Assembly (NCBI GenBank): GCA_963844445.1
Contig: CAWJOB010000001.1
Span: 27,500-91,499 of the forward strand
From: an uncultured Gemmatimonadales bacterium
GTDB lineage: Bacteria > Gemmatimonadota > Gemmatimonadetes > Gemmatimonadales > GWC2-71-9
Direction: 5' to 3'
DNA length: 64,000 nucleotides
Each line of letters begins with the position of its first letter. The first letter of the stretch is position 1. This document shows positions 33,415 to 59,285 of the stretch, in pieces. Under the pieces are notes generated by a model. It searched no databases. It had not been told where the DNA came from and saw nothing but the letters and a program-made list of their open reading frames with translations. The translations under genes and the position numbers were made by a program.

Positions 33415-34059
33415 ATGGTTACGCCAATCGACGAAGAGCCGGTCGCTCCGGAGACGGAGGAGGGCTTTCCGACAGTTCGTGACGCGTTGATCGGCCTGGC
33501 ACTCGGCCTCGGGCTACTCTATCTGGGTACCTGGTTTTCGTCCTGGTGGCTTCGGTGGCCGACCATCGGCCTCGGGGTCCTGTTCGTGCTGGTGATGACC
33601 GCATACATCGTTGCGGCCAGCTGGGAGAGGATATCGGGTCCCGCGAAGCGGGTGGTGAGCCGGGTACGCGGCCACGTCCGAACCGATCCGCAGCTTGGGA
33701 CGCTGTTCCGCGACGTCAAGTCCGAGTCGTGGGAGGGTGCCTTCGCATCTGCGAACGGAACCATCGAGCTCCTCATTTCCGGCCAGGACGAGCCCGAGCC
33801 GGCGCTGGTCGCCCGCGCGCGTGAGGTCGTCGCGGAGTTTCCGGCTCTCCAGCGTCGAGTCGATGAGTACCTCACCGGCGCGGCGGCGGAAGACGCTGAG
33901 CTCGCGGCAGAGATCAGCGCACTGCGGGTTTCGAGCCTGCATTTCTATTGGCCCGAGCGGCCCGACGAGGTCGAGATCGAGTTCGAGATGGGGCCGGACG
34001 AAAAGTACTGGACCTGCATCTACGCGGGCGGCGAGCTGAAGGATCTGAACTTCGACTGA
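33415..34059 (+). CDS. Hypothetical membrane protein (2 TM helices + cytoplasmic domain)
   Basis: It starts at ATG 33415. The TM helices are 'ALIGLALGLGLLYLGTWF' and 'TIGLGVLFVLVMTAYIVAA'. The C-terminus is '...LHFYWPERPDEVEIEFEMGPDEKYWTCIYAGGELKDLNFD'. Confidence 0.5.
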   Translation: MVTPIDEEPVAPETEEGFPTVRDALIGLALGLGLLYLGTWFSSWWLRWPTIGLGVLFVLVMTAYIVAASWERISGPAKRVVSRVRGHVRTDPQLGTLFRDVKSESWEGAFASANGTIELLISGQDEPEPALVARAREVVAEFPALQRRVDEYLTGAAAEDAELAAEISALRVSSLHFYWPERPDEVEIEFEMGPDEKYWTCIYAGGELKDLNFD

Positions 34060-34160
34060 TACCGTCCGATGCGGAACGCGCTGCTCGGGGTGACCGCGCC
34101 TTGCTGGCGTCGGGCCGGAGATCGACGCAGATTCACAGCACCTCCTCCGCCGCGGTACGA

Positions 34161-38022: not shown

Positions 38023-38283
38023 GGAGTAGTTGGAACGCTTGCGACCACCCACCCTCACGGGTATTGTTCCGCCGCTTCCCTAGCAGAGCCCACACCCCGG
38101 AAGACCCGTCTCAGGGTCGTCCACCAAGTCTCTCGGGCAACGAGCTCCGACGTCACGACCGGATCTTTTCAGTCGCCGCCTTTCCGGGCAGCCGCATGCT
38201 CATGCGCGCCCGGAACGGGCAGCCGGCGATTCGCTCTCTTGCAGCTCATGCCTTTGGTAAGTCCCCCGGACTTGGAGACCCGC

Positions 38284-39132
38284 ATGTCACACCGTCCCTG
38301 GCTCGCTCCCGTGGTACTCTTGTGTCTCACCTCAGCGCCGGCCGTTGCCGCCGCGCAGGAGGCCTCCCCTGACCTGTCCCCGCCGAAGGTGCTCCAGATC
38401 TTCGTGGAGTCGGTGAAGCCCGGAAAGGGCGCCGCCCACGAAAAAGTCGAGACCGGCTGGCCCGCGGCCTTCCGCAAGGCCAAATGGCCGACCCGCTACC
38501 TGGGCATGACCTCGATGAGCGGATCGGGTGAGGCGTGGTTCCTGTCGGGCTACGATTCCTTCGCCGCCCTGGAGGCCGACAACGCGAACGTGGAGAAGAA
38601 CCCGGTATTGGCGCGGGAGCTCGAGCGCCTCTCGCAGGCGGACGGGGACATGCTCTCGGCCACCCGCGGCGTCCTCGCCAGCTACCGCCCGGACCTGAGC
38701 TACCGGCCCGACATCGACGTGGGCTCGATGCGCTACTTCGCCCTCACCATCATCACCCTGAAGCCGGGGTACGACAGCGCCTACGCGGACGTCAGGAAGC
38801 TGGTCAACGCCGCGCACGACAAGGCGAGCATGGACGAGCACTGGGCCATGTACCAGGTCGCGTCCGGCATGCCCGGGTCCACCTACCTGCTGCTGATTCC
38901 GATGAAGTCGCTGCAAGAGGCGGATGCGGCCAAGGAGAGCCACGGCAAGGCCTACGGTGACGCGCTCGGCGAATCGGGCCGGTCGCAGCTTCGGGAGTTC
39001 GCCCGCACCGGCATCGAGTCCACCGACTCGAAGCTCTTCGCCTTCAGCCCCAAGATGAGCTATCCCAGGGACGAATGGGTGGCGAAGGACCCGAAGTTCT
39101 GGGCGCCCAAGGCGGTGACGGCAGCGAAGTAG
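38284..39132 (+). CDS. Secreted hypothetical protein
   Basis: It starts at ATG 38284 with the signal peptide 'MSHRPWLAPVVLLCLTSAPAVAAAQ'. The ORF is intact and I recognise no family. Confidence 0.5.
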   Translation: MSHRPWLAPVVLLCLTSAPAVAAAQEASPDLSPPKVLQIFVESVKPGKGAAHEKVETGWPAAFRKAKWPTRYLGMTSMSGSGEAWFLSGYDSFAALEADNANVEKNPVLARELERLSQADGDMLSATRGVLASYRPDLSYRPDIDVGSMRYFALTIITLKPGYDSAYADVRKLVNAAHDKASMDEHWAMYQVASGMPGSTYLLLIPMKSLQEADAAKESHGKAYGDALGESGRSQLREFARTGIESTDSKLFAFSPKMSYPRDEWVAKDPKFWAPKAVTAAK

Positions 39133-39179: not shown

Positions 39180-41015
39180 GTGGCCGTGGATCTCCGGGAC
39201 CAGCTCCAGCACTCGCTCGGCGATGCCTACCGGATCGAGCGCGAGCTCGGCGGCGGCGGGATGTCCCGCGTCTTCCTGGCGCTGGAGACGTCGCTCGAGC
39301 GCCAGGTCGTCGTCAAGGTATTGCTGCCCGAGCTGGCGGCCGGGGTGAGCGTCGAACGGTTCCGCCGCGAGATCTACCTCGCCGCCCAGCTCCAGCATCC
39401 CCACATCGTTCCCCTCCTCGCCGCCGGCGAGTCGGTCGGCCTGCCCTACTTCACCATGCCGTACGTGGACGGCGAGTCGCTGCGCGCCCGCCTGCTCCGC
39501 GACGGTGACCTACCGGTGGCCGAATCGATCCGGGTGCTGCGCGACGTCGCCTCCGCGCTGGGCTACGCCCACACCCGGGGCGTGGTGCACCGCGACATCA
39601 AGCCCGACAACGTGCTGCTCTCCCACGGCGTGGCCGTGGTCACCGACTTCGGCGTGGCCAAGGCGCTCACCGTCAGCAGCGAGCCGGAATCGCCCCTCAA
39701 GAGCCACAGGATCACCTCGATGGGCGTGACCCTCGGCACCCCGGCCTACATGGCGCCGGAGCAGGGCGCGGCCGACCCGGCGATGGACCACCGGGTGGAC
39801 CTCTACTCCTTCGGGGTCATGGGGTACGAGATCCTGACGGGCCAGACGCCCTTCACCGGGCGGAGCCCGCAGGCGATGCTCGGCGCCCACATCGTGGCGC
39901 TGCCGGAGCCGGTGGCGTCCCGCCGCCCCGGCATGCCGCCGCTGCTGGCCAACCTGATCATGAAGTGCCTGGAGAAGCGCCCGTCCGACCGGCCGCAGAC
40001 CGCGGGCGAGATCATGAACGCGCTCGACATGCTGTCCACGCCGAGCGGCGGCACGGTGCCGATCACCGCGGTGCGGAGCTCGCAGTCCGGAGCGCTGTGG
40101 ACGGAAGCCGCGGCCCCCACCCGGCGCAGCCTCGGGCTTCTGGCGGCGGCGCTGGTCGTGCTGGGTGGCGCGGCGCTGTGGGCCTGGCCCCGGTGGGCCG
40201 AGCCGCCGGCGCCGCCGGCCGAACCGGAGACCGCGATCGCGACGCCCACGCCGGCGCCCGCGCCGGCCGCGGAGCCTCCGGTGGCACTGCCCGCGCCGCC
40301 GCGCACGCCTTCGCCACGAGTCGAGCGGCGGCGCCCCCTGCCCGCCCCTCCGTCCGCATCGACCTCATCGGCCAGGGAGGACTCCGCGCTGGTGGTCCGG
40401 CTCCGGGAGCAGGCGGCGGGCGCCCGCACGCGCGCCGTCGCCGGAGGTGTCGGCGACACGGTGATCGCACGGGGCGACTCGAGCGTCGCGCGGGCCGAGT
40501 CGCTCGCGGCCCAGGGGCACGCCGCAGAGGCGGCGGCGCAGCTCTCCAGCGCCACGACGCTCTGGTCGAGCGCCGCGGAGGCGGCGCGGCAACCGCCGGC
40601 GCGCTTCCAGTCGCCCGAGACCACCTCGGCTCCTACTCCGGCCCCGGCACCGGCACCGGCCAAGGACACCACCCCTCTCCCCGCTCCGGACCCGGCGATG
40701 CAGATCCGGGTCCTGTTCGAGGAGTACGGGGCCGGGATCGAGGCGCGGAGCGTCGAGGCGATTCGGCGGGCCTACCCCGGCCTGTCGCCGGAGCGGGCCC
40801 GCGAGTGGGAGGAGTTCTTCAAGGGAGTGACCGACGTCCGGGTGGACCTGAACGTGGCCGGCCTGAAGGTGAACGGCGACGCGGCCGAGGCGCGGCTCAC
40901 CGGGGTCTACGTCTTCGACAACCCGAGCACCCATCGAACCCAGCGCGAGCCCGTGGACTTCCAGGCGTCGCTGCGGCGGGTGGGCAATCGGTGGCGCATC
41001 ACGTCGCTGCGCTGA
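39180..41015 (+). CDS. Ser/Thr protein kinase with Pro/Ala-rich linker and C-terminal NTF2/SnoaL-like domain
   Basis: It has 'GGGGMSRVFLA', 'HRDIKPDN', 'DFGVA' and 'GTPAYMAPEQ'. The TM is 'LGLLAAALVVLGGAALWAW'. The C-terminus is 'IRVLFEEYGAGIEARSVEAIRRAYPGLS...NRWRITSL'. Confidence 0.85.
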   Translation: MAVDLRDQLQHSLGDAYRIERELGGGGMSRVFLALETSLERQVVVKVLLPELAAGVSVERFRREIYLAAQLQHPHIVPLLAAGESVGLPYFTMPYVDGESLRARLLRDGDLPVAESIRVLRDVASALGYAHTRGVVHRDIKPDNVLLSHGVAVVTDFGVAKALTVSSEPESPLKSHRITSMGVTLGTPAYMAPEQGAADPAMDHRVDLYSFGVMGYEILTGQTPFTGRSPQAMLGAHIVALPEPVASRRPGMPPLLANLIMKCLEKRPSDRPQTAGEIMNALDMLSTPSGGTVPITAVRSSQSGALWTEAAAPTRRSLGLLAAALVVLGGAALWAWPRWAEPPAPPAEPETAIATPTPAPAPAAEPPVALPAPPRTPSPRVERRRPLPAPPSASTSSAREDSALVVRLREQAAGARTRAVAGGVGDTVIARGDSSVARAESLAAQGHAAEAAAQLSSATTLWSSAAEAARQPPARFQSPETTSAPTPAPAPAPAKDTTPLPAPDPAMQIRVLFEEYGAGIEARSVEAIRRAYPGLSPERAREWEEFFKGVTDVRVDLNVAGLKVNGDAAEARLTGVYVFDNPSTHRTQREPVDFQASLRRVGNRWRITSLR

Positions 41016-46675: not shown

Positions 46676-46740
46676 CCGTAACTATAGGCCCGCGGATGGC
46701 GGCCTGGCCAGCGGGACAGCGGGGTGTAGGTTACCCCGGC

Positions 46741-49245
46741 ATGACGATTCCTGCCCGTGGTATCCTCACCGCATTGCTGCTCTGCCCCGCCCCGCTCGCC
46801 GCGCAGGACACGACGGTCGTGGTCGTCCGGGCGGCGCGCATGCTCGACGTCTCGACCGGCCGGATGGTGAGCCCCGCGGCGGTCACCGTGAAGGCCGGGC
46901 GGATCGAAGCCGTCGGCGGCGCCGCTCCAGCCGGGGCTCGCACCGTGGATCTGGGCGACGTGACCCTGCTGCCGGGCCTGATCGACCTGCACACCCATCT
47001 CACCGGCGACCTCTCCACCGCCGACTGGATCGCGGAGCCGGTGCGGGGCACGCCGTCGAGCTGGGCGCTCCGCGGCGCGATGAACGCGCGGATCACGCTC
47101 CGGGCCGGGTTCACCACGGTGCGCGACATCGGCGCCGGCGGGTTCTCCGACGTGGCGCTGATGCGGGCGATCGACGCCGGGTTCATCCCGGGTCCGCGCG
47201 TGGTGCCCTCGGGGCACGCCGTCGGGATCACCGGCGGGCACTGCGACGACACCGGCTGGGCGCCGGGGGTCGCGGAGAAGGGACCCGAGGGCGGCGTGGC
47301 CGACGGGCCGGAGGCCGTCACCCGCGCGGTGCGCTACCAGATCAAGCACGGCGCCAAGGTCATCAAGCTCTGCGCCACCGCGGGGGTGCTCTCCTTCGAG
47401 GGCTCGGTCGGGGCGCAGCAGATGGGCGACGACGAGCTCGCGGCCGCCGTCAGGGAGGCGGCGCGGCACGGCGTGCCCGTCGCCGCGCACGCGCACGGCC
47501 CCGAGGGGATCCTCGCCGCGGTGCGCGCCGGCGTGACGTCCATCGAGCACGGGACCATCCTGACGCCGCAGGTGCTCGCCGCGATGCGGGAGCGAGGCAC
47601 CTGGCTGGTGCCGACGCTCTACGTGCGCGACGCGATCCGCCGCGACCTGCTGCCCGCGCCGATCCGGGCCAAGATGGACCAGGTCACCCCGCTGATGGAC
47701 CAGAGCTTCCGGCTGGCGCTCAAGTCGCGGGTGAAGATCGCGTTCGGCACCGACGCCAGCGTGTATCCCCACGGGCAGAACGCGCGGGAGTTCGCCGTGC
47801 GGGTCAGGCTGGGGCAGACTCCGCTGGAGGCGGTGCGCGGCGCCACGGTGTACGCCGCCCAGGTGCTCGGCGTAGACGACCGCGGTGTGATCGGCGTGGG
47901 GAAGCTGGCAGACCTCGTCGCCGTGAGCGGGGATCCGCTGCGCGACATCGGTGCGCTGGAGCGGGTGGTCTTCGTGATGAAGGGCGGCGTGGTGAGCCTG
48001 GCCCAGGCTGAGCGAGGGGGCGTCGCGCCGGCGCCCGCCGCCACGGCCTCCGCGGTCGTGGTGCGGGCGGCGCGGATGGTGGACGTGGAGCGCGGCGTGG
48101 TGGTGAGCCCGGGCGTGGTGGTGGTGGACAGCGGGCGGATCACGTCGGTCGGGGCGTCGGGGATTCCGGCGGGCGCCCCGACCATCGATCTCGGCGACCT
48201 GACCCTGCTGCCCGGGCTGATCGACGCGCACACCCATCTCACCGGCGACACCGATCGCGGGTGGCCGCTGCGGGCCGCGCAGGAGACGCCGGGCGATCGC
48301 GCGCTGCGCGGCGCGCGGAACGCCGGCCTGACGCTTCGCGCCGGCTTCACCACGGTGCGGGACCTCGGCGCGTCCGACTTCGCCGACGTCGCGCTGATGC
48401 GCGCGATCGACGACGGCTGGGTGCCGGGACCGCGGGTGATCCCGGCCGGTCACGCCATCGGCATCACCGGCGGGCATTGCGACGAGACCGGCTGGGCGCC
48501 GGGCGTGCTCCGTCGCGGGGTCGAGCAGGGCATCGCGGACGGGCCGGACGGGGTGACGGCCGCGGTCCGGCACCAGGCCAAGTACGGCGCCAAGGTGATC
48601 AAGATCTGCGCGACGGCCGGGGTGCTCTCGCACGACGCGACCGTGGGCGCCCAGCAGCTCTCCGACGCCGAGATGGAGGCGGTGGTGGAGGAGGCGGTGC
48701 GGCACGGGCTCCGGGTGGCCGCGCACGCGCACGGGGCCGAGGGGACCGTGGCCGCGATCTCGGCGGGGGTGAACTCGATCGAGCACGGCTCCATGCTCAA
48801 CGACGAGGCACTGGCGCTGATGAAGGAGCGCGGCACCTGGCTGGTTCCGACCACGGGGCTGCGCGACATCGAGCTGCCGGATCTGCCGCCGGCGATCCTG
48901 GCCAAGCGGCGCTCGATCGCCACGGTGGCGAAGGAGAGTCTCCGCCGGGCGATCAAGGCGGGGGTGAAGATCGCGCTGGGGACCGACGCGGGCGTGCTGC
49001 CGCACGGCACCAACGGGCGCGAGGTGGCGGCGATGGTGGACCGGGGCATGACGCCGGTGGACGCGCTCCGGGCGGGCACCCTGGGCGCGGCCGAGCTGCT
49101 CGGAGTGAGCGACCGCGGGGTGATCGCGGCGGGTAAGCTGGCGGACCTGATCGCGGTGGAGGGGAACCCGCTGGAGGATCCGACGGCGGTGCAGCGGGTG
49201 GGGTGGGTGATGAAGGGAGGGGTGGTGGAGCGGAGTGTTCGATGA
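46741..49245 (+). CDS. Secreted tandem (duplicated) amidohydrolase-family protein
   Basis: It has a signal peptide 'MTIPARGILTALLLCPAPLAAQ' followed by two complete amidohydrolase units (~46810-47990 and ~48050-49245). Each unit has 'HTHLTGD', 'AAHAHG', 'SIEHG' and 'GTDA'. Confidence 0.85.
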   Translation: MTIPARGILTALLLCPAPLAAQDTTVVVVRAARMLDVSTGRMVSPAAVTVKAGRIEAVGGAAPAGARTVDLGDVTLLPGLIDLHTHLTGDLSTADWIAEPVRGTPSSWALRGAMNARITLRAGFTTVRDIGAGGFSDVALMRAIDAGFIPGPRVVPSGHAVGITGGHCDDTGWAPGVAEKGPEGGVADGPEAVTRAVRYQIKHGAKVIKLCATAGVLSFEGSVGAQQMGDDELAAAVREAARHGVPVAAHAHGPEGILAAVRAGVTSIEHGTILTPQVLAAMRERGTWLVPTLYVRDAIRRDLLPAPIRAKMDQVTPLMDQSFRLALKSRVKIAFGTDASVYPHGQNAREFAVRVRLGQTPLEAVRGATVYAAQVLGVDDRGVIGVGKLADLVAVSGDPLRDIGALERVVFVMKGGVVSLAQAERGGVAPAPAATASAVVVRAARMVDVERGVVVSPGVVVVDSGRITSVGASGIPAGAPTIDLGDLTLLPGLIDAHTHLTGDTDRGWPLRAAQETPGDRALRGARNAGLTLRAGFTTVRDLGASDFADVALMRAIDDGWVPGPRVIPAGHAIGITGGHCDETGWAPGVLRRGVEQGIADGPDGVTAAVRHQAKYGAKVIKICATAGVLSHDATVGAQQLSDAEMEAVVEEAVRHGLRVAAHAHGAEGTVAAISAGVNSIEHGSMLNDEALALMKERGTWLVPTTGLRDIELPDLPPAILAKRRSIATVAKESLRRAIKAGVKIALGTDAGVLPHGTNGREVAAMVDRGMTPVDALRAGTLGAAELLGVSDRGVIAAGKLADLIAVEGNPLEDPTAVQRVGWVMKGGVVERSVR

Positions 49246-50881: not shown

Positions 50882-51289
50882 CTAGACCTTGCCCGACTGG
50901 TGTGCGACCAAATCTCTGACCTTCTCAAGAAGTTGATCTGGGGTAAAGGGCTGCCGTATGGTGGGCACATCATCGAGCAAACCGTCGGGGTTTGGCATTG
51001 GGTCGCCGACATGCAGGATTGGCAATTCCGGTCTCTTGCTTCGGACTCCCTTGATGAGCTCTCGGTTGGTCACGACGCCCCACCGAGTATTGGTGACCAA
51101 AAGATCCAACTCGGGGATCAGGAGGGCCAACTCGCAGGCCGACTCACCATCGTAGGCGGCGAAAACGCAGTGCCCAGCGTCGCGGAGTGTGGTGACCAGG
51201 AAGGCCATGAGCGCGGGATCGTCGTCGGTGACGACGATTCGCCAGGGCCGGGAGGACACGACTGTCACGGGAAATCCTTCGCCCGGCAA
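50882..51289 (-). CDS. Single-domain response-regulator receiver with Asn at the phospho-acceptor position
   Basis: It has 'RIVVTDDDPALM', 'LDLLVTNTRWG' (D replaced by N) and 'RQPFTPDQLLEKV'. The start is TTG 51289 or GTG 51268. Confidence 0.7.
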   Translation of the reverse strand: MPGEGFPVTVVSSRPWRIVVTDDDPALMAFLVTTLRDAGHCVFAAYDGESACELALLIPELDLLVTNTRWGVVTNRELIKGVRSKRPELPILHVGDPMPNPDGLLDDVPTIRQPFTPDQLLEKVRDLVAHQSGKV

Positions 51290-51544
51290 GGACGGCCGGG
51301 AGCGGCAGATCAGTGGAGCGAGTGATCCCTAAAGCCTACCGCCTGGGACGCGTGAGCGGCAGGTCAGGTATGCGTCCTCCCTGCCGGGTGCCTCATCGCG
51401 GCGGCGCATCGGCTCCGTCTCACACCCGCCTCCTCGCCCTGGCCGACCGCCGTACTGCGCTATATCGTGTATTCGCCGCACCGCCTGCCGTGCGGGATTC
51501 GCCCGCGCGTCCCGGGCTCCGCGGCGTCTTCGGAGGGACGCATC

Positions 51545-52081
51545 ATGCGCAGCACGTTCATACCGTTGGCCGCCCTCGGCCTGCTCCTCGGGTGTGGGGG
51601 CGGTGCCGACCGAACCGCCGATCGCGAGCCTGGCGCAGCGGCCGACCAGTCCCAGGCCGACACAATGGCGTCGGCGTCCACGGCGGACACCGCGAGCGAT
51701 GGCGGGCTCACTTGGGGGCCGGCGCCGCCCGGTCTCCCCGCTGGAGCCCAAGCGGCGGTGGTCTCGGGCGACCCGACCAAGGCCGGCCCCTTCACTGTTC
51801 GGCTCGACATGCCGCCGGACTACGTGATTCGCCCGCACCATCACCCCACGAGCGAGGAGCTCCGCCTGGTCGAGGGCACAGTTCATGTAGGCCATGGGGC
51901 AAAGTGGGATGAGCAGGCCATGAAGGCGATTGCCACGGACAAGCCAGTGACGATGGGCGCCAAGGAGCCTCACTTCCTGCACGCTGCCAGCCGCGTCGTC
52001 CTGGAGGTCCAGAGCACAGGCCCCTTCGCGATCACCTACGTCGACCCGAAGGACGATCCGCGGACCGGCTCAACGCCTTGA
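51545..52081 (+). CDS. Cupin-domain lipoprotein
   Basis: It starts at ATG 51545 with the lipobox 'LLLGC'. It has 'PHHHPTSEELRLVEGTVHVGHG' and 'PHFLHA'. Confidence 0.6.
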   Translation: MRSTFIPLAALGLLLGCGGGADRTADREPGAAADQSQADTMASASTADTASDGGLTWGPAPPGLPAGAQAAVVSGDPTKAGPFTVRLDMPPDYVIRPHHHPTSEELRLVEGTVHVGHGAKWDEQAMKAIATDKPVTMGAKEPHFLHAASRVVLEVQSTGPFAITYVDPKDDPRTGSTP

Positions 52082-52153
52082 GCCGGCGATCGTGCCTTCC
52101 TCGCGGCGGCCGACCCTCGGCCTGCGGACGCGGGATAGGCTGATGCACAGCGC

Positions 52154-52190
52154 AAGGGGTCAGCCTTCACAGACTGACCCCTTTGTGTTT
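52154..52190. terminator. Bidirectional rho-independent-type terminator between convergent genes
   Basis: A perfect 10-bp stem AAGGGGTCAG/CTGACCCCTT with a 10-nt loop is followed by TGTGTTT on the + strand. Confidence 0.6.
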
Positions 52191-52210
52191 ACCCCTCTGG
52201 TGCGCGATGG

Positions 52211-52444
52211 CTAAGATCGTCGAGCTGCGTCTGGCAGAGGTCGCATGGCCCCGTCTTCCGTCACCTCGATGCGGCGCACGTCCAGCGGTCCCACTGCCGC
52301 GTCCCATTCCTCGTAGGTGAACCCGAGCCCCGATTCACCGGGATGTATCGTCTCCTCGAAGTCACCCTTAGTGTGGCCGATTTCGCTGCGCGTCTGCAAG
52401 ATGAGCCTGGCGCCGGTCTTGGTCCTCCTGACAGAGATCATCAT
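52211..52444 (-). CDS. Hypothetical small protein
   Basis: It starts at ATG 52444: 'MMISVRRTKTGARLILQTRSEIGHTKGDFEETIHPGESGLGFTYEEWDAAVG...'. It lies 17 nt downstream of YPYL protein A. Confidence 0.4.
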   Translation of the reverse strand: MMISVRRTKTGARLILQTRSEIGHTKGDFEETIHPGESGLGFTYEEWDAAVGPLDVRRIEVTEDGAMRPLPDAARRS

Positions 52445-52461
52445 AAAGCACGACACTTTCC

Positions 52462-52680
52462 TCAGGCGAGGTCCGCGGCGGTCGCCGGCCCCCCGCGGAA
52501 CACGAAATCTTGGTCTGAGAGAACCCGATTCACGCGATTCACGGCCGCGGCGGGGATTCCCCGGTACTCTGCCACCAGCGCCGCGAGGCGACCGGCAGCC
52601 GTCCACATACGTGCTGGTAGGTATGGGTACGACTCGACCGCGGTGGGCTTAAGTGCAGCTTCACGAACAGGTTGCGCCAT
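52462..52680 (-). CDS. Small 'YPYL...FxFRG' protein, paralogue A (unknown family)
   Basis: It starts at ATG 52680. 'ESYPYLPARMWTAAGRLAALVAE...LSDQDFVFRGG' aligns with the product of 55051..55332. Confidence 0.5.
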   Translation of the reverse strand: MAQPVREAALKPTAVESYPYLPARMWTAAGRLAALVAEYRGIPAAAVNRVNRVLSDQDFVFRGGPATAADLA

Positions 52681-52917
52681 GACAACTCCCACGATTCGGC
52701 GGTGGGCAATTCCACCTCCGCCTTCGTGATACACACTACGCGAGCGTTGCACCTGATGATGTGAGCCGGCCCACCATCCTCAGCGCTCCATAGAACGCGG
52801 GCGACCCTCGCCGAGCGGGCGATAGGTGCTGAACGGTTTGTAGAGGTTGGGTAGGTCTTCCGGCGGACCCCTTCGCTTCGCTGAATGGGGATTGACGCTT
52901 CCGCCGACCTCTCTTCG

Positions 52918-53085
52918 TCAGGCTGCCCCGCGCTCTTGCTGGTCCACGTCTTCCGCCGTCCGTTCGTGCTCGCGGTACCACTCCTCCGACTGCTCATCGG
53001 CCGCGCCTCCGGCGGCACAGATGGCGCAGATCGCGATGATGAGGCAAGCCCAGACGAAGGCGAGCACCCCAAGCACTGAGAGCAT
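52918..53085 (-). CDS. Small single-TM protein, hypothetical (below the ORF-track length cutoff)
   Basis: Manual translation from ATG 53085 gives 'MLSVLGVLAFVWACLIIAICAICAAGGAADEQSEEWYREHERTAEDVDQQERGAA'. Confidence 0.35.
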   Translation of the reverse strand: MLSVLGVLAFVWACLIIAICAICAAGGAADEQSEEWYREHERTAEDVDQQERGAA

Positions 53086-53311
53086 ACAATCAGGCGCCGC
53101 AACCGGGATGCCGTACTGCGAGGATTGGGCAGCTCTCAGGCAAGCAACGGGTTAGCCCGGACAGCTGCACGGAGCGCCGGAGCGCGGCTCTCTCATCCTG
53201 CAGTGACACCTCATGCAGTGGCTGCAATGCGCTGCAGACGACTGCGATCACAACGGCAGCTGTTTCGTGAACCCCAGCTCGTGCTCCGCTCAGGCCGCCG
53301 GCCCACCCTGG

Positions 53312-53794
53312 TCAATGTGGTCCGAGGATCCGCCGGCGCGTTCGCTCTCTACGCGCTGTGACCGAGTGGAGCGTGGGAATGGGACGAACTGGCCCCAGGA
53401 GTGCCATCAGCGCGCCGAACAGGTCGGCGAGCCGGATGGGTTTGAGCAGGTGCGGGAGGTCCCGGTAGCCGCCGAGGAGCTCGGCGCTGCGGGGCTCCTG
53501 GAGGTCCGCTATGAGAATCACGCGCATGGTGTGGTCGAGCTCCAGAACGCGCTCCAGCAGCTCGCCACCATCCCTCTCTGTCATCCCCAGGTCGGCAATC
53601 AAGACGCTCACCCCTCGGGGATGACTCTGGACGAACCGGAGCGCGTCGGCTCCCCGCCGGCAACTGCGGGTCGGGTAGCCCAAGCCTCGAATCATGCGGC
53701 TGATCCCGAGGCGTTCAGCATGGTCGGCGTCCACGACGAGAACTAGAGGACCGGGGTGCAGAGGGGCGATGGCGGCGCCAGCAGAGTCGGACAT
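53312..53794 (-). CDS. Single-domain response-regulator receiver
   Basis: It starts at ATG 53794. It has 'LVLVVDADHAE', 'VLIADLGMTERDG' and 'LLKPIRLADL'. Confidence 0.7.
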   Translation of the reverse strand: MSDSAGAAIAPLHPGPLVLVVDADHAERLGISRMIRGLGYPTRSCRRGADALRFVQSHPRGVSVLIADLGMTERDGGELLERVLELDHTMRVILIADLQEPRSAELLGGYRDLPHLLKPIRLADLFGALMALLGPVRPIPTLHSVTARRERTRRRILGPH

Positions 53795-53952
53795 GAGGAC
53801 CCCGAGGACATCGAGAGCTATCCGGTATCTGGGTCCTCGCCACGTCGAGGACTGATACGATGAGCCGCGAGGCACCCCGAATGCCCGCCGGTGCAGGATA
53901 GCCCGGCCGTCCCGCCAGAGGCTGTGACGTAGACCACCAGAGCCGGCCCCCC

Positions 53953-54378
53953 CTAGGGAGTGGCGGGAGTCCGACTCTCCCGCTTGGGCCTGCCTGGCAT
54001 TTCAAGCGCAATCTCGATGAGCTCCTCGACTTGGCCACTCGCGAAAGGCTTCTGAAGGAGCGGCACCTTCCGGCCCTTCGCGCCCACTGGCATCAGCCCG
54101 GCAGGGGAGTAGGCAGACATGAGGATCACGGGGAGACCAGGATACTCTTCGGCAATGACGGCTGCGAACTCGGTGCCGTTCATGTCCGGCATTACGATGT
54201 CCGACAGCACCAGATCCAGGCTGCCGCGCCGCATTCGGACCACCTCGAGCGCTTCGCGGCCATGGCTGGCCTCGAGGACGGTATGGCCCCGAGCGATCAG
54301 CTGACTCCGGAGTGTGACGCGAACGCCGTCTTCGTCATCCACGATGAGGATCGTGCCGGTACGATGGGGATGAGACAT
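53953..54378 (-). CDS. Single-domain response-regulator receiver (canonical CheY-like)
   Basis: It starts at ATG 54378. It has 'ILIVDDEDGVR', 'DLVLSDIVMPDMNG', 'VILMSAY' and 'LLQKPF'. Confidence 0.8.
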   Translation of the reverse strand: MSHPHRTGTILIVDDEDGVRVTLRSQLIARGHTVLEASHGREALEVVRMRRGSLDLVLSDIVMPDMNGTEFAAVIAEEYPGLPVILMSAYSPAGLMPVGAKGRKVPLLQKPFASGQVEELIEIALEMPGRPKRESRTPATP

Positions 54379-54532
54379 GACGCCTCCAAGCACAAGGGCA
54401 TGGATCGGCGCCTCTCCCCACGAGAAGAGACTGTTGCGGTGGACAGTTGCCCGAGAAGCTAGTCTAGCGCACTGACTAGGGCTCGCAAGAGTAAGCGTCG
54501 AGCGGGTCCCGAATACCATCCTCCTCGCCGGT

Positions 54533-54946
54533 CTAGCGTGAGCCGTTCGCGGCCTTCCCGTTAAGGATCGGCGCAACAGCCTCCCGTAGGTTCCTGACCG
54601 TGAAGGGTTCGCGCAGTATCGGCACGTCTTCGGGAAGCTGGGCTTCTGCCTCCGGAGAGGACCGACCGAGGTTGGCGAGATAGATGATGGGCAGGGTGGG
54701 CAGCCGCTTGCGGAGATACAGGATCAGCTCAACGCCGTCCGAGCCCTCGACCTTGGTATTACAAATGACTAGATCGCAGGTGCCCAGGCCCATGGCCAGC
54801 TGCGTAGCGGAGAGTACATCGTAGGCGTGGAACACGGCGTGGCCATCGTCCCGCAGCGTCTGGAGTATCATGTCGACTATGCGGCGGTCCTCGTCGGCGA
54901 CGACAATGTGCCGGCCGGTGAAAGCCGGTGGAATCCGGGCACACAT
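54533..54946 (-). CDS. Single-domain receiver with Asn at the phospho-acceptor position (paralogue of 50882..51289)
   Basis: It starts at ATG 54946. It has 'HIVVADEDRRIV', 'CDLVICNTKVEG' and 'LREPFTVRNLREAV'. Confidence 0.7.
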   Translation of the reverse strand: MCARIPPAFTGRHIVVADEDRRIVDMILQTLRDDGHAVFHAYDVLSATQLAMGLGTCDLVICNTKVEGSDGVELILYLRKRLPTLPIIYLANLGRSSPEAEAQLPEDVPILREPFTVRNLREAVAPILNGKAANGSR

Positions 54947-55050
54947 TGTAAGCCTTAGGACCCGGGAGACATCCGGGAGTGGCAGGCAGCGGAGGGACTG
55001 CAACTACCCTTAAGATACCGCCGTGTACCGGTGAAAGGGTCGGTGAGGCA

Positions 55051-55332
55051 CTACGAGGCATCCTCCCGGCGGCGCGGGCCGGCGGGTGGCCTGAACTCAC
55101 TGCCCCGAAACTCGAAGTGATCTGGGTCGAGCGCCCGCTCTCTGCTGATGAACCTGCCGTCCGGGCGACCCAGGATGTTGGCTACCACCCGTTCGGACAG
55201 CACCGCCGCCGATTCCCAGATCCCCGGTACCAGGTAGGGGTACTGGCCGGTAAACTCGGGCCGGAGCCGTGCCTCCCGCGAGCCTGACTTGGCGCGGGAG
55301 GGTTCCAATTCTGGTCCAGGAGTGATCAGCAT
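55051..55332 (-). CDS. Small 'YPYL...FxFRG' protein, paralogue B (unknown family)
   Basis: It starts at ATG 55332 and has 'GQYPYLVPGIWESAAVLSERVVANILGRPDGRFISRERALDPDHFEFRGSE'. Confidence 0.5.
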   Translation of the reverse strand: MLITPGPELEPSRAKSGSREARLRPEFTGQYPYLVPGIWESAAVLSERVVANILGRPDGRFISRERALDPDHFEFRGSEFRPPAGPRRREDAS

Positions 55333-55369: not shown

Positions 55370-56650
55370 TCATTTGATGAAGACCACCGCCACCTCATTG
55401 GCCACCAGGGCGGTGCGCCCATCCGCGGTAAACACCACGTTGCGGGGCGTGCCACCGACGAGGAGGGTTTTCAGCGGTGCGCGCGACGCTCGGTCGAGTA
55501 TTCGGACTTCACCGACTTGGGCCAGAAGCAGATAGATCTGAGCGCCATCCGGCGTGAGCCCGAGGCCATACCCCGCCGTGCCGAAGCTGAGCTGGGTGAC
55601 GTCACCGGAGGCTACATTCACGATGTCCAATCCGTGCACCTCGTTGGCCACGTACAGCTCACCTCCGTCCGGGGCGACAGCCAGCCGCTGCGGCATTCCA
55701 CCGAGAGGGTAGGTGCGGGTGATCGTGTTCGTGGCCGGATCGATGGCCACTACGGTCCCCGCGTCCCGGGAGCTCACGTAGAGGACATCGCCGTCGGGAC
55801 TGAAGGCCAGCCCATTCGCGGCCGCCCCGACGGGGAGTGTGGTGACGACCTCATAGGTGCCAGCATTGACGACGTAGAGGGTACCGTCGGCGGTGGTCAC
55901 GTAGACGCGCTGGCCATCCGGCGCGACCAGGAGGTTGAACCCATCACTGGTCAGGGGGACGGCAGTGACGAGGGTGTTCGTGATAGCGTCCACCACCGCC
56001 AGACCGCGACCGGTTTGGAGCGTCGCGAAGACCGCGGTGCCGGCAGGATTGAACGCCACGTGCGGCGGCGTGAGACCGACTTCCACCGGCGAGTCGAAGG
56101 TCATGGTCGCCACGTCGCCCCTGATCAACGAACTGCTGCCGATGAGCGCGGCATAGGCAACGCCACTCGAGGCCACAGCCACACCGTAGGGACCTCCGCT
56201 CAAGAGGATCGTGCGCGCAACCACCCCGGCGGGATGTGCAACCGGCAGCACCGTGCACGCGACGGTGAGTATCACCTCGATCGTCTGATTGACTGCCAAG
56301 GTGACCGGGCGCGGGTTGTCACCGGTGAGGCTGCAATTCTGGGCAAGGCCAGTCAGCTGGAGTGAGTGCTCGCCCTGAGCAAGGCCGGTCAGAGTGAGAC
56401 TCTCGCTGACGCCTATGCTGCTGGATGGGTTCCCGTCGAGGGAGAAGCTGTAGCCGTCGGGATCAGCATCTGGACCGGTGGTGGACGTGGTGAGTCGGAG
56501 CGCCGCTGAACCAAGTTCATCGGGTGGCTCGGTGTTCCCGCCGCACGCGATCGTGGCTGCCGCAAGGACGCACCAGAGCCGCCGGCCGAGCAGGCGGTTG
56601 GCGCGGGCTGCAGCACCCAGCGAAGCGTCGTCGAGGGTTTCCGGGCTCAT
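55370..56650 (-). CDS. Lipoprotein with Ig-like region and YVTN-type beta-propeller repeats
   Basis: It starts at ATG 56650 with the lipobox 'AATIACG'. The repeats include 'PDGQRVYVTTADGTLYVV', 'SPDGDVLYVSSRDAGTVVAID' and 'APDGGELYVANE'. Confidence 0.75.
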   Translation of the reverse strand: MSPETLDDASLGAAARANRLLGRRLWCVLAAATIACGGNTEPPDELGSAALRLTTSTTGPDADPDGYSFSLDGNPSSSIGVSESLTLTGLAQGEHSLQLTGLAQNCSLTGDNPRPVTLAVNQTIEVILTVACTVLPVAHPAGVVARTILLSGGPYGVAVASSGVAYAALIGSSSLIRGDVATMTFDSPVEVGLTPPHVAFNPAGTAVFATLQTGRGLAVVDAITNTLVTAVPLTSDGFNLLVAPDGQRVYVTTADGTLYVVNAGTYEVVTTLPVGAAANGLAFSPDGDVLYVSSRDAGTVVAIDPATNTITRTYPLGGMPQRLAVAPDGGELYVANEVHGLDIVNVASGDVTQLSFGTAGYGLGLTPDGAQIYLLLAQVGEVRILDRASRAPLKTLLVGGTPRNVVFTADGRTALVANEVAVVFIK

Positions 56651-56771: not shown

Positions 56772-59285
56772 GTGAGCAAGTCCGACGATGCGACCCACAC
56801 CGCAATCGAGAAACCGGCATTCCTGACCGGTGTGTTTCTGATCACCTTCTCGATCCTGGTGTTCCAGATCGCCCAGACCCGCATTCTGTCGGTCATTGCC
56901 TGGTATGCCCTGGCCTTCTTCGCTATCAGCGTGGCCATGCTGGGCATGACCGTCGGCGCGGTATGGGTCTATCTGCGGCCCGAACGGTTCCAGCCGCAGA
57001 GCTTGCCCGCGAACCTGACGAACCACGCATTGGCCTGCGCGGTCAGCATTCCCGCCTCCCTCATGGTCCAGTTCTCCCTGATCACCAGCATCTCGCTTTC
57101 GGCTTCGACGGTGATTTCCTGGGGCCTGCTGACGGCGGCAATGGCCGTGCCCTATGTCTTCGCCGGCATCGTGGTGAGCCTGGCGCTGACGCGCGGGCCT
57201 TTCCCGGTGGCCGAGGTCTATGGCGTCGACCTGTTGGGGGCGGCGCTGGGCTGCGTGGCGGTGGTGTTGCTCCTGAATGTGTTGGATGCTCCGACGACCG
57301 TCATGTGCACCGGCGTTGTCGCTGCTCTTTCTGCCTGGTATTTCGACGCCTCGGCGCGCGAGTCGGGCCGGGAGAAGCAGCGCCTCCGCCCATGGTGGCA
57401 GCGTCCGGGGTTGGTTCTGTCGGCTCTGCTGGTGCTGACCTTGCTCAACGCCCTGACTCCGGTGGGCCTGCGTCCCATCCTGGTGAAGGGCACCGTGGAG
57501 TTCTCCGGGTTGGACCGCTTCGAGAAGTGGAACTCCTATTCGCGCGTCGTGGCGACGCGGCCGGCCACGGTTCGGCCGCATCTCTGGGGCCCCTCGCCGA
57601 AGTTGCCCAGGGATCTCGTCACCCAGCAGGCGATGCTGACCATCGACGGCATGGCCAGCTCGGCGATGTATCACTACGACGGCACGCGCGAGACTCTTGA
57701 TTTCCTGCACTACGACCTGGTGAATCTGGCGTACAATCTGCCGGGCATATCCAAAGCCGCGATCATCGGCGTCGGCGGCGGTCGCGACATCCTATCGGCG
57801 CACGCGTATGGAGTGCCGCAGATCACCGGCGTGGAGCTCAATCCCATTTTCATCGACCTGCATACCCGCGATGGCTTCTACAAGAGCTTTTCCAACTTGA
57901 CGGCGCTGCCCAACCTGAAGCTGTACGTCGACGACGCCCGCAGCTGGTTCGCCAGCACCGAGCAGAGATTCGACCTGATCCAGATGAGCATGATCGACAC
58001 CTGGGCGGCGACCGGTGCGGGAGCGTTCAGCCTCAGCGAGAACGGGCTCTACACACTGGAGGGCTGGCGAGCTTTCCTGGAGACGCTCGAGGATGACGGT
58101 GTCTTTACCGTCAGCCGGTGGTACGATCCCGGTGACGTCAACGAGACAGGTCGCATGATCGGCCTGGCCACGGCGACCCTGCTGGATGCCGGTGTGGCGG
58201 ACGCGCGGCCCTATCTGTTCGTCGCCCGCGCCGATCATATCGCGACCCTGCTGCTGTCCAAGCGTCCGTTTACCGCTGATCAGCTGCATGTCCTGCACGG
58301 CGCGATCGACCGGCTCGGTTTCCGCGTGCTGTTGGCACCCGACCGTCCTGCCACGTCCGAGCTCCTGGCCGCGATGGTCGGCAGCAAGGACATAGCCAGC
58401 CTGAACGACATCTCGTCGCGCGCCTATCTCGATCTCACCGTGCCCACCGACGACCGGCCCTTTTTCTTCAACCAGCTGCGCTTCTCCGACATTCCGAACG
58501 CGGTCATGCGTTGGCTCCGCGGCGACTACTTCGCGGGTGTGATCAGAGGCAATCTGCTGGCGTCAGCGGTTCTGATCCTGATCCTGTTCATCTCCATTGT
58601 CGCGGTGAGCGGCACCATTCTCGTGCCGCTGTTGGGTGCAGTGCGGCATCGACCCCTACCCCTGATGGTCGCTGGGAGCGCCTATTTTTCGTTGATCGGT
58701 ATGGGATTCATGCTGGCGGAGATCGCGCTGCTGCAGTACTTCAGCATCTATCTCGGACATCCCATCTACGCGCTCGGGGTGTGTCTGTTCAGTCTGATCC
58801 TGGCGACCGGCCTGGGAAGCCTCGCTTCGAGCCGGGTCGATGTCGGCTCGCCGCGCGGCATGTTGATGTGGAGCGCCGCAGTTGTGGTGTATCTGGTAGG
58901 CGTTCAGCAATGGCTGGCGGACGTGTTCCATGCGACGACCGACCGCGATCTCCCGGTGCGCATCGCGGTATCCCTTCTGGTGGTGATGCCCCTAGGCTTC
59001 CTGCTTGGATTCGCCTTTCCCACGGGCATGAAGCTGGTCGAAGCGGTGGACAAGGAGCCGGCGCCTTGGTTCTGGGGCATCAACGGCGCTACCGGCGTCC
59101 TCGCCTCGGTGCTGGCGGTGATGCTGAGTATGGCGTTCGGTATCCGGGTGACACTCTTGGTGTCGAGCCTGTGCTACCTCGGCTTGATCCCGGCCGGCTA
59201 TGCGCTGAGGAGCCTGCAACAGCCAGGCCGAGCGCCACTCGCGTCGCCTCGATCGCCGCGTTTACCCGCTCCCAGTCCGCCATGA
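56772..59285 (+). CDS. Polytopic membrane protein with central spermidine-synthase-like (class I MTase fold) domain
   Basis: This intact 837-aa ORF starts at GTG. It has N- and C-terminal multi-TM blocks. The centre carries 'AAIIGVGGGRDILSA', 'ITGVELNP' and 'FDLIQMSMIDTWAATGAGAFSLSENGLYT'. Confidence 0.75.
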   Translation: MSKSDDATHTAIEKPAFLTGVFLITFSILVFQIAQTRILSVIAWYALAFFAISVAMLGMTVGAVWVYLRPERFQPQSLPANLTNHALACAVSIPASLMVQFSLITSISLSASTVISWGLLTAAMAVPYVFAGIVVSLALTRGPFPVAEVYGVDLLGAALGCVAVVLLLNVLDAPTTVMCTGVVAALSAWYFDASARESGREKQRLRPWWQRPGLVLSALLVLTLLNALTPVGLRPILVKGTVEFSGLDRFEKWNSYSRVVATRPATVRPHLWGPSPKLPRDLVTQQAMLTIDGMASSAMYHYDGTRETLDFLHYDLVNLAYNLPGISKAAIIGVGGGRDILSAHAYGVPQITGVELNPIFIDLHTRDGFYKSFSNLTALPNLKLYVDDARSWFASTEQRFDLIQMSMIDTWAATGAGAFSLSENGLYTLEGWRAFLETLEDDGVFTVSRWYDPGDVNETGRMIGLATATLLDAGVADARPYLFVARADHIATLLLSKRPFTADQLHVLHGAIDRLGFRVLLAPDRPATSELLAAMVGSKDIASLNDISSRAYLDLTVPTDDRPFFFNQLRFSDIPNAVMRWLRGDYFAGVIRGNLLASAVLILILFISIVAVSGTILVPLLGAVRHRPLPLMVAGSAYFSLIGMGFMLAEIALLQYFSIYLGHPIYALGVCLFSLILATGLGSLASSRVDVGSPRGMLMWSAAVVVYLVGVQQWLADVFHATTDRDLPVRIAVSLLVVMPLGFLLGFAFPTGMKLVEAVDKEPAPWFWGINGATGVLASVLAVMLSMAFGIRVTLLVSSLCYLGLIPAGYALRSLQQPGRAPLASPRSPRLPAPSPP

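Follow-up and report, generated by a model that had tools for sequence, protein, structure and literature searches.

Two stand-alone aspartate-less pseudo-receivers in a strain-variable receiver cluster of a Gemmatimonadales bacterium

What can a receiver protein do once it has lost the aspartate that is normally phosphorylated, at a locus that encodes no histidine kinase? This question is raised by a stretch of 64,000 nucleotides (nt) from an uncultured Gemmatimonadales bacterium (hereafter, the window; contig CAWJOB010000001.1, positions 27,500 to 91,499), in which four single-domain receivers, all encoded on the minus strand, are packed within 4 kb (window 50882-54946). We refer to them, in their order on that strand, as R4, R3, R2 and R1. 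The gene starts used are 54946, 54378, 53794 and 51268, respectively; the last of these shortens R1, for which a span of 50882-51289 had been given in an original prediction made from the sequence without database searches. That prediction took R1 and R4 for paralogous pseudo-receivers with Asn at the acceptor site, and the four receivers for a possibly phosphorylation-independent signalling or partner-switching set. We conclude that R1 and R4 are paralogous stand-alone pseudo-receivers (PsRs) of the aspartate-less kind, and that this identity is secure.

All four proteins match the Pfam receiver family Response_reg (PF00072), at 69.6 bits for R3, 41.1 for R2, 35.3 for R4 and 21.3 for R1, where the gathering score is 30.2 bits. 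R1 thus falls below the gathering score. We nonetheless count it as a receiver because it matches the receiver of a hybrid kinase, 28tm_A, in a phmmer search of the Protein Data Bank (PDB; E 9e-11), and because it is 41% identical to R4 (E 2e-22). The DNA of R1 and R4 still has a 43-nt stretch that can be aligned. Hence, both the presence of four stand-alone receivers on one strand and the paralogy of two of them were correctly predicted. In an AlphaFold2 (AF2) model of R4, with a confidence score (pLDDT) of 83, five strands alternate with helices in the (beta-alpha)5 arrangement, and N63 lies at the end of strand beta3, as D57 does in CheY. The top 50 Foldseek matches of this model in the PDB are all receivers or receiver-fold domains, at template-modelling scores of 0.70-0.80.

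The acceptor site itself is unambiguous. Asn lies exactly at the position of CheY D57 in R4 (N63) and in R1, and the CheY, Spo0F and PDB alignments agree on this point (MAFFT alignments with CheY and Spo0F; HMMER alignments with FleR, Spo0F and 28tm_A). In R4, DLVICNTKVEGSDG stands opposite LVISDVNMPGMDG; in R1, 'DLLVTNTRWG' stands opposite 'DLLVTDVGLPG', and the alignment with 28tm_A places N opposite D and Q opposite K. The original prediction had allowed that a nearby Asp might occupy the acceptor position instead; we looked for one in the alignments of both proteins and found none.

The other catalytic residues follow the same trend. R4 and R1 keep the acidic pair equivalent to CheY D12/D13, as D-E (D18/E19) and D-D, respectively; R3 also has D-D, and R2 has D-A. 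The Thr and Lys of CheY (T87 and K109) are replaced by A91 and E113 in R4, and by Gly and Gln in R1. R1 and R4 are therefore without the acceptor Asp, Thr and Lys, three of the five catalytic residues. The aromatic switch residue is absent from both, and the T+1 and K-3 positions of R4 are taken by a bulky Asn (N92) and by Ile (I110), respectively. The features that mark a competent receiver, an Asp acceptor and the Thr/Lys residues, are missing from both, and the lack of the acceptor Asp makes both of them aspartate-less receivers (ALRs). With these residues missing, R1 and R4 would be unable to run the normal His-to-Asp phosphotransfer cycle, and signalling independent of Asp phosphorylation is therefore a reasonable reading. 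To that extent we agree with the original prediction.

R4 belongs to a large family, with at least 754 database homologues (E<=1e-3). The best 120 of these 754 are single-domain proteins of ~135 amino acids (aa) that are 62-81% identical, and the substitutions seen in R4 are strongly conserved among them. The acceptor is Asn in 111 of the 120 (92%) and Asp in the other nine, the Lys position is Glu in 117 (97%), and the acidic residues D18 and E19 are retained in more than 114. The residues on either side of the acceptor form an 'SNT' motif, with Ser/Thr at D-1 in 118/120 and Thr/Ser at D+1 in 119/120; the R4 of the window has Cys at D-1 instead of Ser. A beta2-alpha2 block ('GHAVFHAYDVLSATQLA'; family pattern 'LRxDGHAVFHAYDVLSATQLA') is nearly invariant in the same set, and six arginines (R12, R32, R79, R95, R112 and R121) are invariant or nearly so. 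All 18 genome matches of R4 are metagenome-assembled genomes (MAGs) of Gemmatimonadales or Gemmatimonadota. With R1 as the query, 1.8 billion cluster representatives yielded a looser set, with 162 matches below 1e-10. We aligned 79 sequences from this clade, namely 76 matches of 100-230 aa together with R1, R4 and CheY. The Asn, within the motif 'DLL(I/V)(T/S)NT(R/K)', is present in 55 of the 79, and a Glu ahead of 'PFT' in 33. The cluster look-up for this wider Asn-type clade comprises metagenome entries only. The alignments indicate that R1 and R4 are old paralogues inside one Asn-type clade. We surveyed gene context in 18 genome loci, 64 metagenome loci and 12 contig look-ups (loci labelled L001 onward); genes of the R1 type and the R4 type adjoin each other in L003 and L015.

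The ratio of non-synonymous to synonymous substitution (dN/dS) is 0.18-0.26 for R4 and 0.13 for R1, which points to purifying selection on these genes and not to decay. Because the ratio is about 0.2, we regard R1 and R4 as functional pseudo-receivers. A few R4 orthologues are split over two frames (L015 10001-10380, L086 7192-7633, L082 and L083); the splits reflect either genuine frameshifts in pseudogenes or errors of assembly. Other substitutions at the acceptor site occur in receivers beside R4 orthologues or genes of the small-protein families discussed below: a 147-aa receiver with Glu ('IVITEVLVPGLDG'; L006 3137-3580) and a 140-aa receiver with Ser ('VVLTSLLLPVVSG'; L086 9387-9809).

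About 6% of bacterial receivers are pseudo-receivers; among ALRs, 16% carry Asn at the acceptor site, a frequency that ranks second among the replacements of Asp (PMC4395418). Gemmatimonadetes were included in the 2015 ALR census. Our literature search found no paper characterizing the R4/R1 family. R1 and R4 thus represent a well-defined new member family of a known class.

The two remaining receivers had been described as canonical. This is correct for R3, which has the D-D acidic pair, the acceptor Asp, Ser at the T87 position and Lys at the K109 position, and which is the sole canonical receiver of the four. Its best NCBIfam similarities are to CckA-receiver and CpdR-type models, below cut-off, and an orthologue that is 60-71% identical adjoins a small-protein gene of the same families in L090-L092. 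A longer R3 with an N-terminal extension was considered and ruled out, since the upstream similarity to L090 carries indels that are not multiples of three. About 50 nt 5' of the R3 start (window 54379-54440; 'CTCTTCTCGTGGGGAGAGGCG...') are conserved with L090 ~582-640, and the indel pattern identifies this sequence as a conserved non-coding leader or ribosome-binding region. Non-coding conservation upstream in turn supports the ATG start that we used. The description does not hold for R2. It retains the Asp acceptor and Lys, with Ala in place of the second acidic residue (DD2) and either Ala or Asp in place of the Thr. A PsR is a recognized receiver without residues required for phosphotransfer, and an ALR is one without the acceptor Asp (PMC12632262; PMC4395418); R2, lacking DD2 and Thr, is a PsR under the definition of Bourret et al. 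2025, yet not an ALR.

Where might a partner for these proteins be encoded? No histidine kinase was found in the whole 64-kb window by tblastn with four kinase cores, and the best match in a six-frame search of the 64 kb with hidden Markov models had E 1.1, with positive controls at 1e-25 to 1e-105. The original prediction noted this absence for 49-64 kb; it is a property of the locus but not of the family, in which a histidine-kinase core lies no more than 3 kb from at least nine R4 orthologues, all nine of them Asn-type. Within 3 kb of R4 orthologues, the density of such cores is 4.1 per 100 kb, compared with 1.5 per 100 kb at 3-10 kb, an enrichment of ~2.8-fold (9 observed vs 3.3 expected, P=0.006). 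The arrangements vary. The PsR gene precedes a PAS hybrid kinase in L010 and L014, follows a GAF/PAS hybrid kinase in L007, and lies 115-149 nt downstream of a histidine kinase in L029, L031 and L033. In L029 (4954-8411), a receiver fused to a thioredoxin-reductase-type pyridine-nucleotide-disulfide oxidoreductase is followed by a histidine kinase with a domain that binds cyclic nucleotide monophosphates (cNMPs) and then, at 149 nt, by an Asn-type R4 orthologue. By their gene order and spacing, these kinase-PsR arrangements look like operons.

Kinases of another kind are present in the window. The original prediction that 49-64 kb contains no kinase overlooked a Hanks-type Ser/Thr kinase (Table 1), one of three in the 64 kb (the others are at 33948-36785 and 39180-41015). 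It is a bare domain without the C-terminal TPR or propeller extensions of its relatives (490 to >1000 aa); a 945-aa Hanks-type kinase of the window bears PD40 propeller repeats. Ser/Thr kinases lie near R4 in L006, L007, L009 and L029, and 6.7 kb from it in the window. We rejected a link between these kinases and the receivers: the similarity is generic, there are three such kinases in the window alone, and the vicinity of R4 orthologues shows no enrichment for them (P=0.37). The co-occurrence of Asn-type receivers with their neighbours, which the original prediction had proposed to examine, is significant near R4 orthologues for histidine kinases and not for Ser/Thr kinases or, as described below, for other receivers.

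What, then, is the function of receivers that keep the fold and lose the chemistry? We consider the odds slightly better than even that R1 and R4 serve two-component circuits as protein-binding modules that need no phosphorylation. They keep the receiver fold and the acidic pair, and would act as constitutive binding modules. They might bind a histidine kinase or a genuine receiver (R3 or R2, for instance), and possibly the small proteins described below; on a kinase or receiver, R1 and R4 could act as competitors, heterodimer partners or adaptors. The candidate binding surface is the unusually conserved beta2-alpha2 and beta3-alpha3 region. In this genome, two pseudo-receivers have been gathered with a canonical and a degenerate receiver in a lower-GC, strain-variable segment, and the cognate kinase, if any, would be encoded elsewhere. 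According to a 2025 review, it "remains a mystery" how pseudo-receivers are turned on and off; the review puts forward the binding of PsRs to kinases or receivers as a mechanism, and notes that the alpha1-beta2-alpha2 and alpha2/beta3-alpha3 regions gain importance in pseudo-receivers and that most characterized atypical regulators are orphans (PMC12632262). That R3 and R2 come after R4 in the window is consistent with binding to a receiver.

Several observations weigh against this proposal. The kinase enrichment rests on nine loci that are not all independent, some of them probably from related lineages, and of 28 R4 loci with sufficient flanking sequence, 19 lack any two-component gene within 3 kb. 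Enrichment for other receivers near R4 orthologues is not significant (P=0.10), and the R4-R3-R2 trio is not conserved in the context survey. The acidic pair and the flanking Ser/Thr residues would still allow metal or ligand binding, or alternative phosphorylation. Lastly, nine of the 120 closest family members carry Asp, such that the chemistry is maybe not uniformly dead.

The layout of the locus bears on whether the four receivers form a unit (Table 1). A co-directional run on the minus strand, from 56650 to 52211, comprises a beta-propeller lipoprotein gene, a gene for a small basic protein (YPYL1), R4, R3, R2, a gap, a gene for a second small protein (YPYL2), a 77-aa open reading frame (ORF; orf77) and a hairpin. 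The three consecutive receivers (54946-53312) do lie behind the lipoprotein and a small protein, as originally described. The intergenic gaps between receivers are 104-158 nt, and the gap between R2 and YPYL2 is 631 nt; another lipoprotein gene begins 31 nt past R1. The hairpin has no U-tract and was passed over by a simple terminator scan (the locus is 65% GC); its predicted stem probably marks the end of the minus-strand transcription unit. An Rfam search found no RNA element at the locus, and the search for promoters and terminators in this 65% GC DNA yielded the hairpin alone. We treat orf77 as a putative gene: the annotation of the matching public contig includes it, and it has no family match and no homologue in any related locus retrieved.

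Table 1. Features of the receiver locus and its surroundings, in window coordinates.
Feature	Coordinates	Strand	Basis
YncE-like beta-propeller lipoprotein (lipobox 'IACGG'), heads the run	55370-56650	-	Pfam YNCE 39.8 bits and other propeller families
YPYL1, small basic protein directly upstream of R4	55051-55332	-	Unannotated family
R4, 137-aa stand-alone pseudo-receiver	54533-54946	-	PF00072, CheY/PDB alignments, AF2, family conservation
R3, single-domain receiver of 141 aa, canonical (DD, D, S and K present)	53953-54378	-	Pfam 69.6 bits, alignment
R2, 160-aa degenerate receiver	53312-53794	-	Pfam 41.1 bits, alignments
YPYL2, 72-aa YPYL1 paralogue downstream of R2	52462-52680	-	37% identity to YPYL1
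orf77, 77-aa ORF, 17 nt past YPYL2, last of the co-directional run	52211-52444	-	
GC-rich hairpin, 30 nt past orf77	52156-52181	-	RNAfold -24.3 kcal/mol, 13-bp stem
Cupin-like gene between the orf77 hairpin and R1	51467-52081	+	
R1, 128-aa stand-alone pseudo-receiver, R4 paralogue	50882-51268	-	PDB phmmer, identity to R4
Hanks-type Ser/Thr kinase, kinase domain only, 274 aa	61669-62493	+	Pfam Pkinase E 2e-51

The surrounding DNA changes composition close to the cluster. GC content drops from ~0.74 to ~0.64 near 49.3 kb and stays low from there to the end of the window, which places the receivers inside a block of at least 15 kb at ~64% GC, compared with ~74% upstream. A second low-GC block (0.60-0.64) lies at window 20-30 kb. 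These blocks may be flexible-genome islands. A tRNA gene was sought at the GC boundary, and none is present anywhere in the window. Just upstream of the boundary, window 46696-49245 encodes an 849-aa protein of two tandem, mutually similar amidohydrolase (PF01979) modules. A divergent neighbour of the propeller gene, also kept alongside it in L087, encodes an 837-aa polytopic membrane protein (memb837; window 56772-59285). The central region of this protein weakly resembles spermidine synthase, a polyamine aminopropyltransferase, with an NCBIfam match (E 1e-6) that is below cut-off. We considered and rejected two origins for the cluster. PADLOC gave one weak, sub-threshold match to a defence system (R4 to PD-T4-6, E 0.0015), and the sole match to the phage families of PHROGs is insignificant and falls on a neighbouring lipoprotein.

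A conserved four-receiver unit is ruled out, as no R4-R3-R2 or R1 context is shared across the surveyed loci. The closest homologues of R4 (81% and 75% identity; L098 and L099) are in unrelated neighbourhoods, and so are the homologues of R1 (L100 and L101). One group of R4 orthologues lies between an Lrp-type regulator and a peptidase M1, downstream of ATP-synthase genes. The most informative comparison is with L087, a metagenome contig with 91% DNA identity, in which the order memb837, propeller, YPYL1 is held at 91-92% identity, together with the first 44 codons of R4. From that point, 4.6 kb of the window (54816-50188) are swapped for 1.6 kb of other DNA (L087 4088-5663), with loss of the R4 C-terminus, R3, R2, YPYL2, orf77, the cupin gene and R1, up to the lipoprotein gene. 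The replacement encodes a 278-aa protein that is 45% identical to window 38239-39132, and a 58-nt remnant of R3 persists at L087 5578-5634. We interpret the 4.6-kb segment as a strain-level presence/absence polymorphism. Because homologues occur in unrelated contexts, the segment is replaced in L087 and the block has a lower GC content, the four-receiver arrangement is a lineage-specific, dispensable juxtaposition. Hence, phosphorylation-independent signalling is a fair description of what R1 and R4 might do, but the "set" of the original prediction is not a conserved one.

The small proteins of the locus belong to conserved families. YPYL1 has the core 'REARLRPEF..YPYL.PG.W...RFISRERALDP.HFEFRG' and is 37% identical to YPYL2 over 59 aa (E 1e-8). 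YPYL1 has 159 homologues, at 65-88% identity and with no Pfam domain, and YPYL2 has 152, also unannotated. Both families are strongly conserved, ~70-85 aa long (about 81 for YPYL1-like and about 69 for YPYL2-like proteins) and Arg-rich, with invariant Y-P-Y-L...W and (H/D)F.FRG motifs; dN/dS is 0.20-0.37 for YPYL1 and 0.09 for YPYL2. Neither YPYL1 nor YPYL2 has a match in Pfam, NCBIfam, PADLOC or PHROG, and the AF2 model of YPYL1 (pLDDT 69) has no Foldseek match in the PDB. YPYL genes are often in tandem and beside single-domain receivers, as noted for L085, L086, L090, L093 and L095; YPYL2 is in tandem with YPYL1-like genes in L085 and L093. In four of six contexts sampled from YPYL1 homologues (L086, L087/L088, L090-L092 and L093), a receiver gene lies within 1 kb (P ~0.006, a rough binomial estimate for a local receiver density of 5-8 per 100 kb). 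YPYL-like genes flank R4 orthologues in L034, L036/L038-L040 and L099, and in L087/L088 a YPYL gene lies beside an R4 remnant or R4 itself. The order is R3 orthologue, 90-aa protein, YPYL in L090-L092. A third small protein, up100 (~100 aa, unannotated, no Pfam match), is absent from the window and lies beside R4 orthologues in L025 (2542-2805), L028 (1288-1548), L046 (9-185) and L086 (7694-7996). In L086 the order is R4-type, up100, YPYL, response regulator; in L093, three YPYL paralogues are followed by up100 (4186-4488) and a response regulator.

We regard the association of YPYL proteins and up100 with receivers, as seen in gene order, as a lead and not as a demonstrated system. It is conceivable, though we would not expect it, that Asn-type pseudo-receivers, both YPYL families, up100 and canonical single-domain receivers make up an undescribed Gemmatimonadales toolkit, in which the pseudo-receivers would be adaptors that couple kinases or receivers to YPYL effectors. 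If so, output would be delivered in trans by small basic YPYL proteins, with no fused output domain.

Could the pseudo-receivers be phosphorylated after all, by a non-standard route? In such a scheme, the Asn would be deamidated to Asp, or the Ser/Thr of the 'SNT' motif would be phosphorylated by a histidine kinase or a Hanks-type kinase. The near-universal Ser/Thr residues at D-1 and D+1, the retention of the metal-binding acidic pair and the presence of Asn-type orthologues inside apparent kinase operons all fit. In 1999, Appleby and Bourret reportedly found that CheY D57N is phosphorylated on Ser56. The Ser/Thr kinases near R4 orthologues and in the window could also be counted in favour, but they are not enriched near R4 and are merely dense in these genomes. 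Moreover, the R4 of the window has Cys where Ser would be needed. Deamidation of an acceptor-site Asn in a receiver has been cited (PMC4395418); however, with Lys and Thr also lost, a bulky Asn at T+1 and no aromatic switch residue, restoring the Asp would still leave the protein without the apparatus for catalysis and coupling. We consider phosphorylation by such a route unlikely.

It is similarly improbable that R1 and R4 are ligand or metal sensors, in which an acidic pocket (D18, E19, N63 and E113) or the Arg-rich surface would bind a divalent metal or a nucleotide such as cyclic di-GMP (c-di-GMP) and switch the conformation. Each of the four pocket residues is conserved in >92% of the family despite the loss of phosphotransfer, the arginines are invariant or nearly so, and one type of adjacent kinase has a cNMP-binding domain. 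There is also a precedent in the pseudo-receiver of ShkA, which binds c-di-GMP (PMC7010744). Nonetheless, no recognized c-di-GMP-binding motif was identified, and no GGDEF, EAL or cyclase genes were found among the window ORFs scanned.

A role as an adaptor for proteolysis or localization seems to us a slim prospect. Caulobacter CpdR is active when unphosphorylated, and a non-phosphorylatable receiver would mimic the active form; R1 and R4 would then be the locked equivalent of unphosphorylated, active CpdR or RssB. CpdR and RssB models are among the best NCBIfam similarities of R4, R2 and R3, but the scores for the CpdR model (32 bits for R4, 26.6 for R1, 59.9 for R3 and 29.1 for R2) are far below its 180-bit cut-off, and neither the receivers' surroundings in the window nor the related loci inspected contain Clp or Lon genes. 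Likewise, none of the receivers can be assigned to chemotaxis as a CheY: all NCBIfam matches are far below cut-off, and there are no che neighbours in the parts examined, which comprise the Pfam scans of 49-64 kb (which the original prediction had also read as free of chemotaxis genes) and of selected ORFs of 34-49 kb, together with the histidine-kinase-core searches of the whole window.

Partner-switching, the other half of the original proposal, is a very doubtful fit to this locus. Pseudo-receivers would sequester a small anti-sigma-like protein, with YPYL in a role like that of NepR, and the small size and conservation of the YPYL proteins and their frequent position within 1 kb of a receiver are in keeping with this idea. 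However, Pfam and NCBIfam searches of the 49-64 kb ORFs revealed no STAS, anti-sigma, sigma-factor, sigma-like, RsbW-type kinase or PP2C protein, nor did the related loci inspected contain one, and the YPYL model fits no known fold in the PDB. Finally, that the pseudo-receivers are decaying, non-functional relics in a dispensable island, as might be supposed from the absence of the segment from the 91%-identical L087, the lower GC content (0.64 vs 0.74) and the split R4 frames of some MAGs (L015 and L086), is effectively refuted by conservation: dN/dS is 0.13-0.26, hundreds of homologues hold identical substitutions, the ORFs are intact with conserved starts, and the split frames may be assembly errors.

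What does the R4 family add to the study of pseudo-receivers? It reveals no new signalling principle. Nearly all studied pseudo-receivers are DNA-binding regulators. The R4 family is a compact model, with hundreds of single-domain members and a sharp signature of Asn/Ala/Glu at D/T/K. Its conserved surface falls in the region that the recent review flags as newly important (PMC12632262). Natural variants exist both as orphans and as members of apparent kinase operons. The family could be used to probe whether stand-alone pseudo-receivers are kinase decoys, heterodimer partners or ligand sensors. The analysis also flags two conserved, unannotated small-protein families in an abundant soil lineage.

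In size, fold and stand-alone architecture, the proteins described here resemble CheY, Spo0F, DivK and CpdR. R3 is an ordinary member of this group, whereas, of the five catalytic residues, three are missing from R1 and R4 and two from R2. As examples of ALR/PsR domains, R1 and R4 resemble RitR of Streptococcus pneumoniae, an orphan protein with the PF00072 fold in which Asp is replaced by Asn (Asn53). RitR differs in having an OmpR-type DNA-binding domain and a redox-sensitive linker Cys, where R1 and R4 are receiver domains only; R1 and R4 also keep both acidic residues, with Lys replaced by Glu or Gln. FrzS of Myxococcus xanthus docks independently of phosphorylation through an unusual face (alpha3-beta4-alpha4), and the conserved region of R4 is likewise unusual. 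In contrast to R4, FrzS has a long coiled-coil and belongs to a chemosensory pathway, and no chemotaxis-type genes occur in the parts of the window examined.

For gene arrangement, there is a likeness to CmrRST of Clostridioides difficile, in which the PsR CmrT is encoded with the kinase CmrS and the regulator CmrR (PMC12632262); compare the response regulator, histidine kinase and PsR of L029 and the R4-R3-R2 run of the window. CmrT has a DNA-binding output, the window lacks a histidine kinase and the arrangement is not conserved, but the mechanisms proposed for CmrRST, kinase binding and PsR-receiver heterodimers, carry over. For function, there is a likeness to WhiI-BldM of Streptomyces. 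Both of those proteins are DNA-binding regulators, and a pairing that involves R4 or R1 is drawn by analogy. Nonetheless, WhiI-BldM, with an atypical receiver that works only when paired, is a model for how R4 and R1 might act on R3 and R2.

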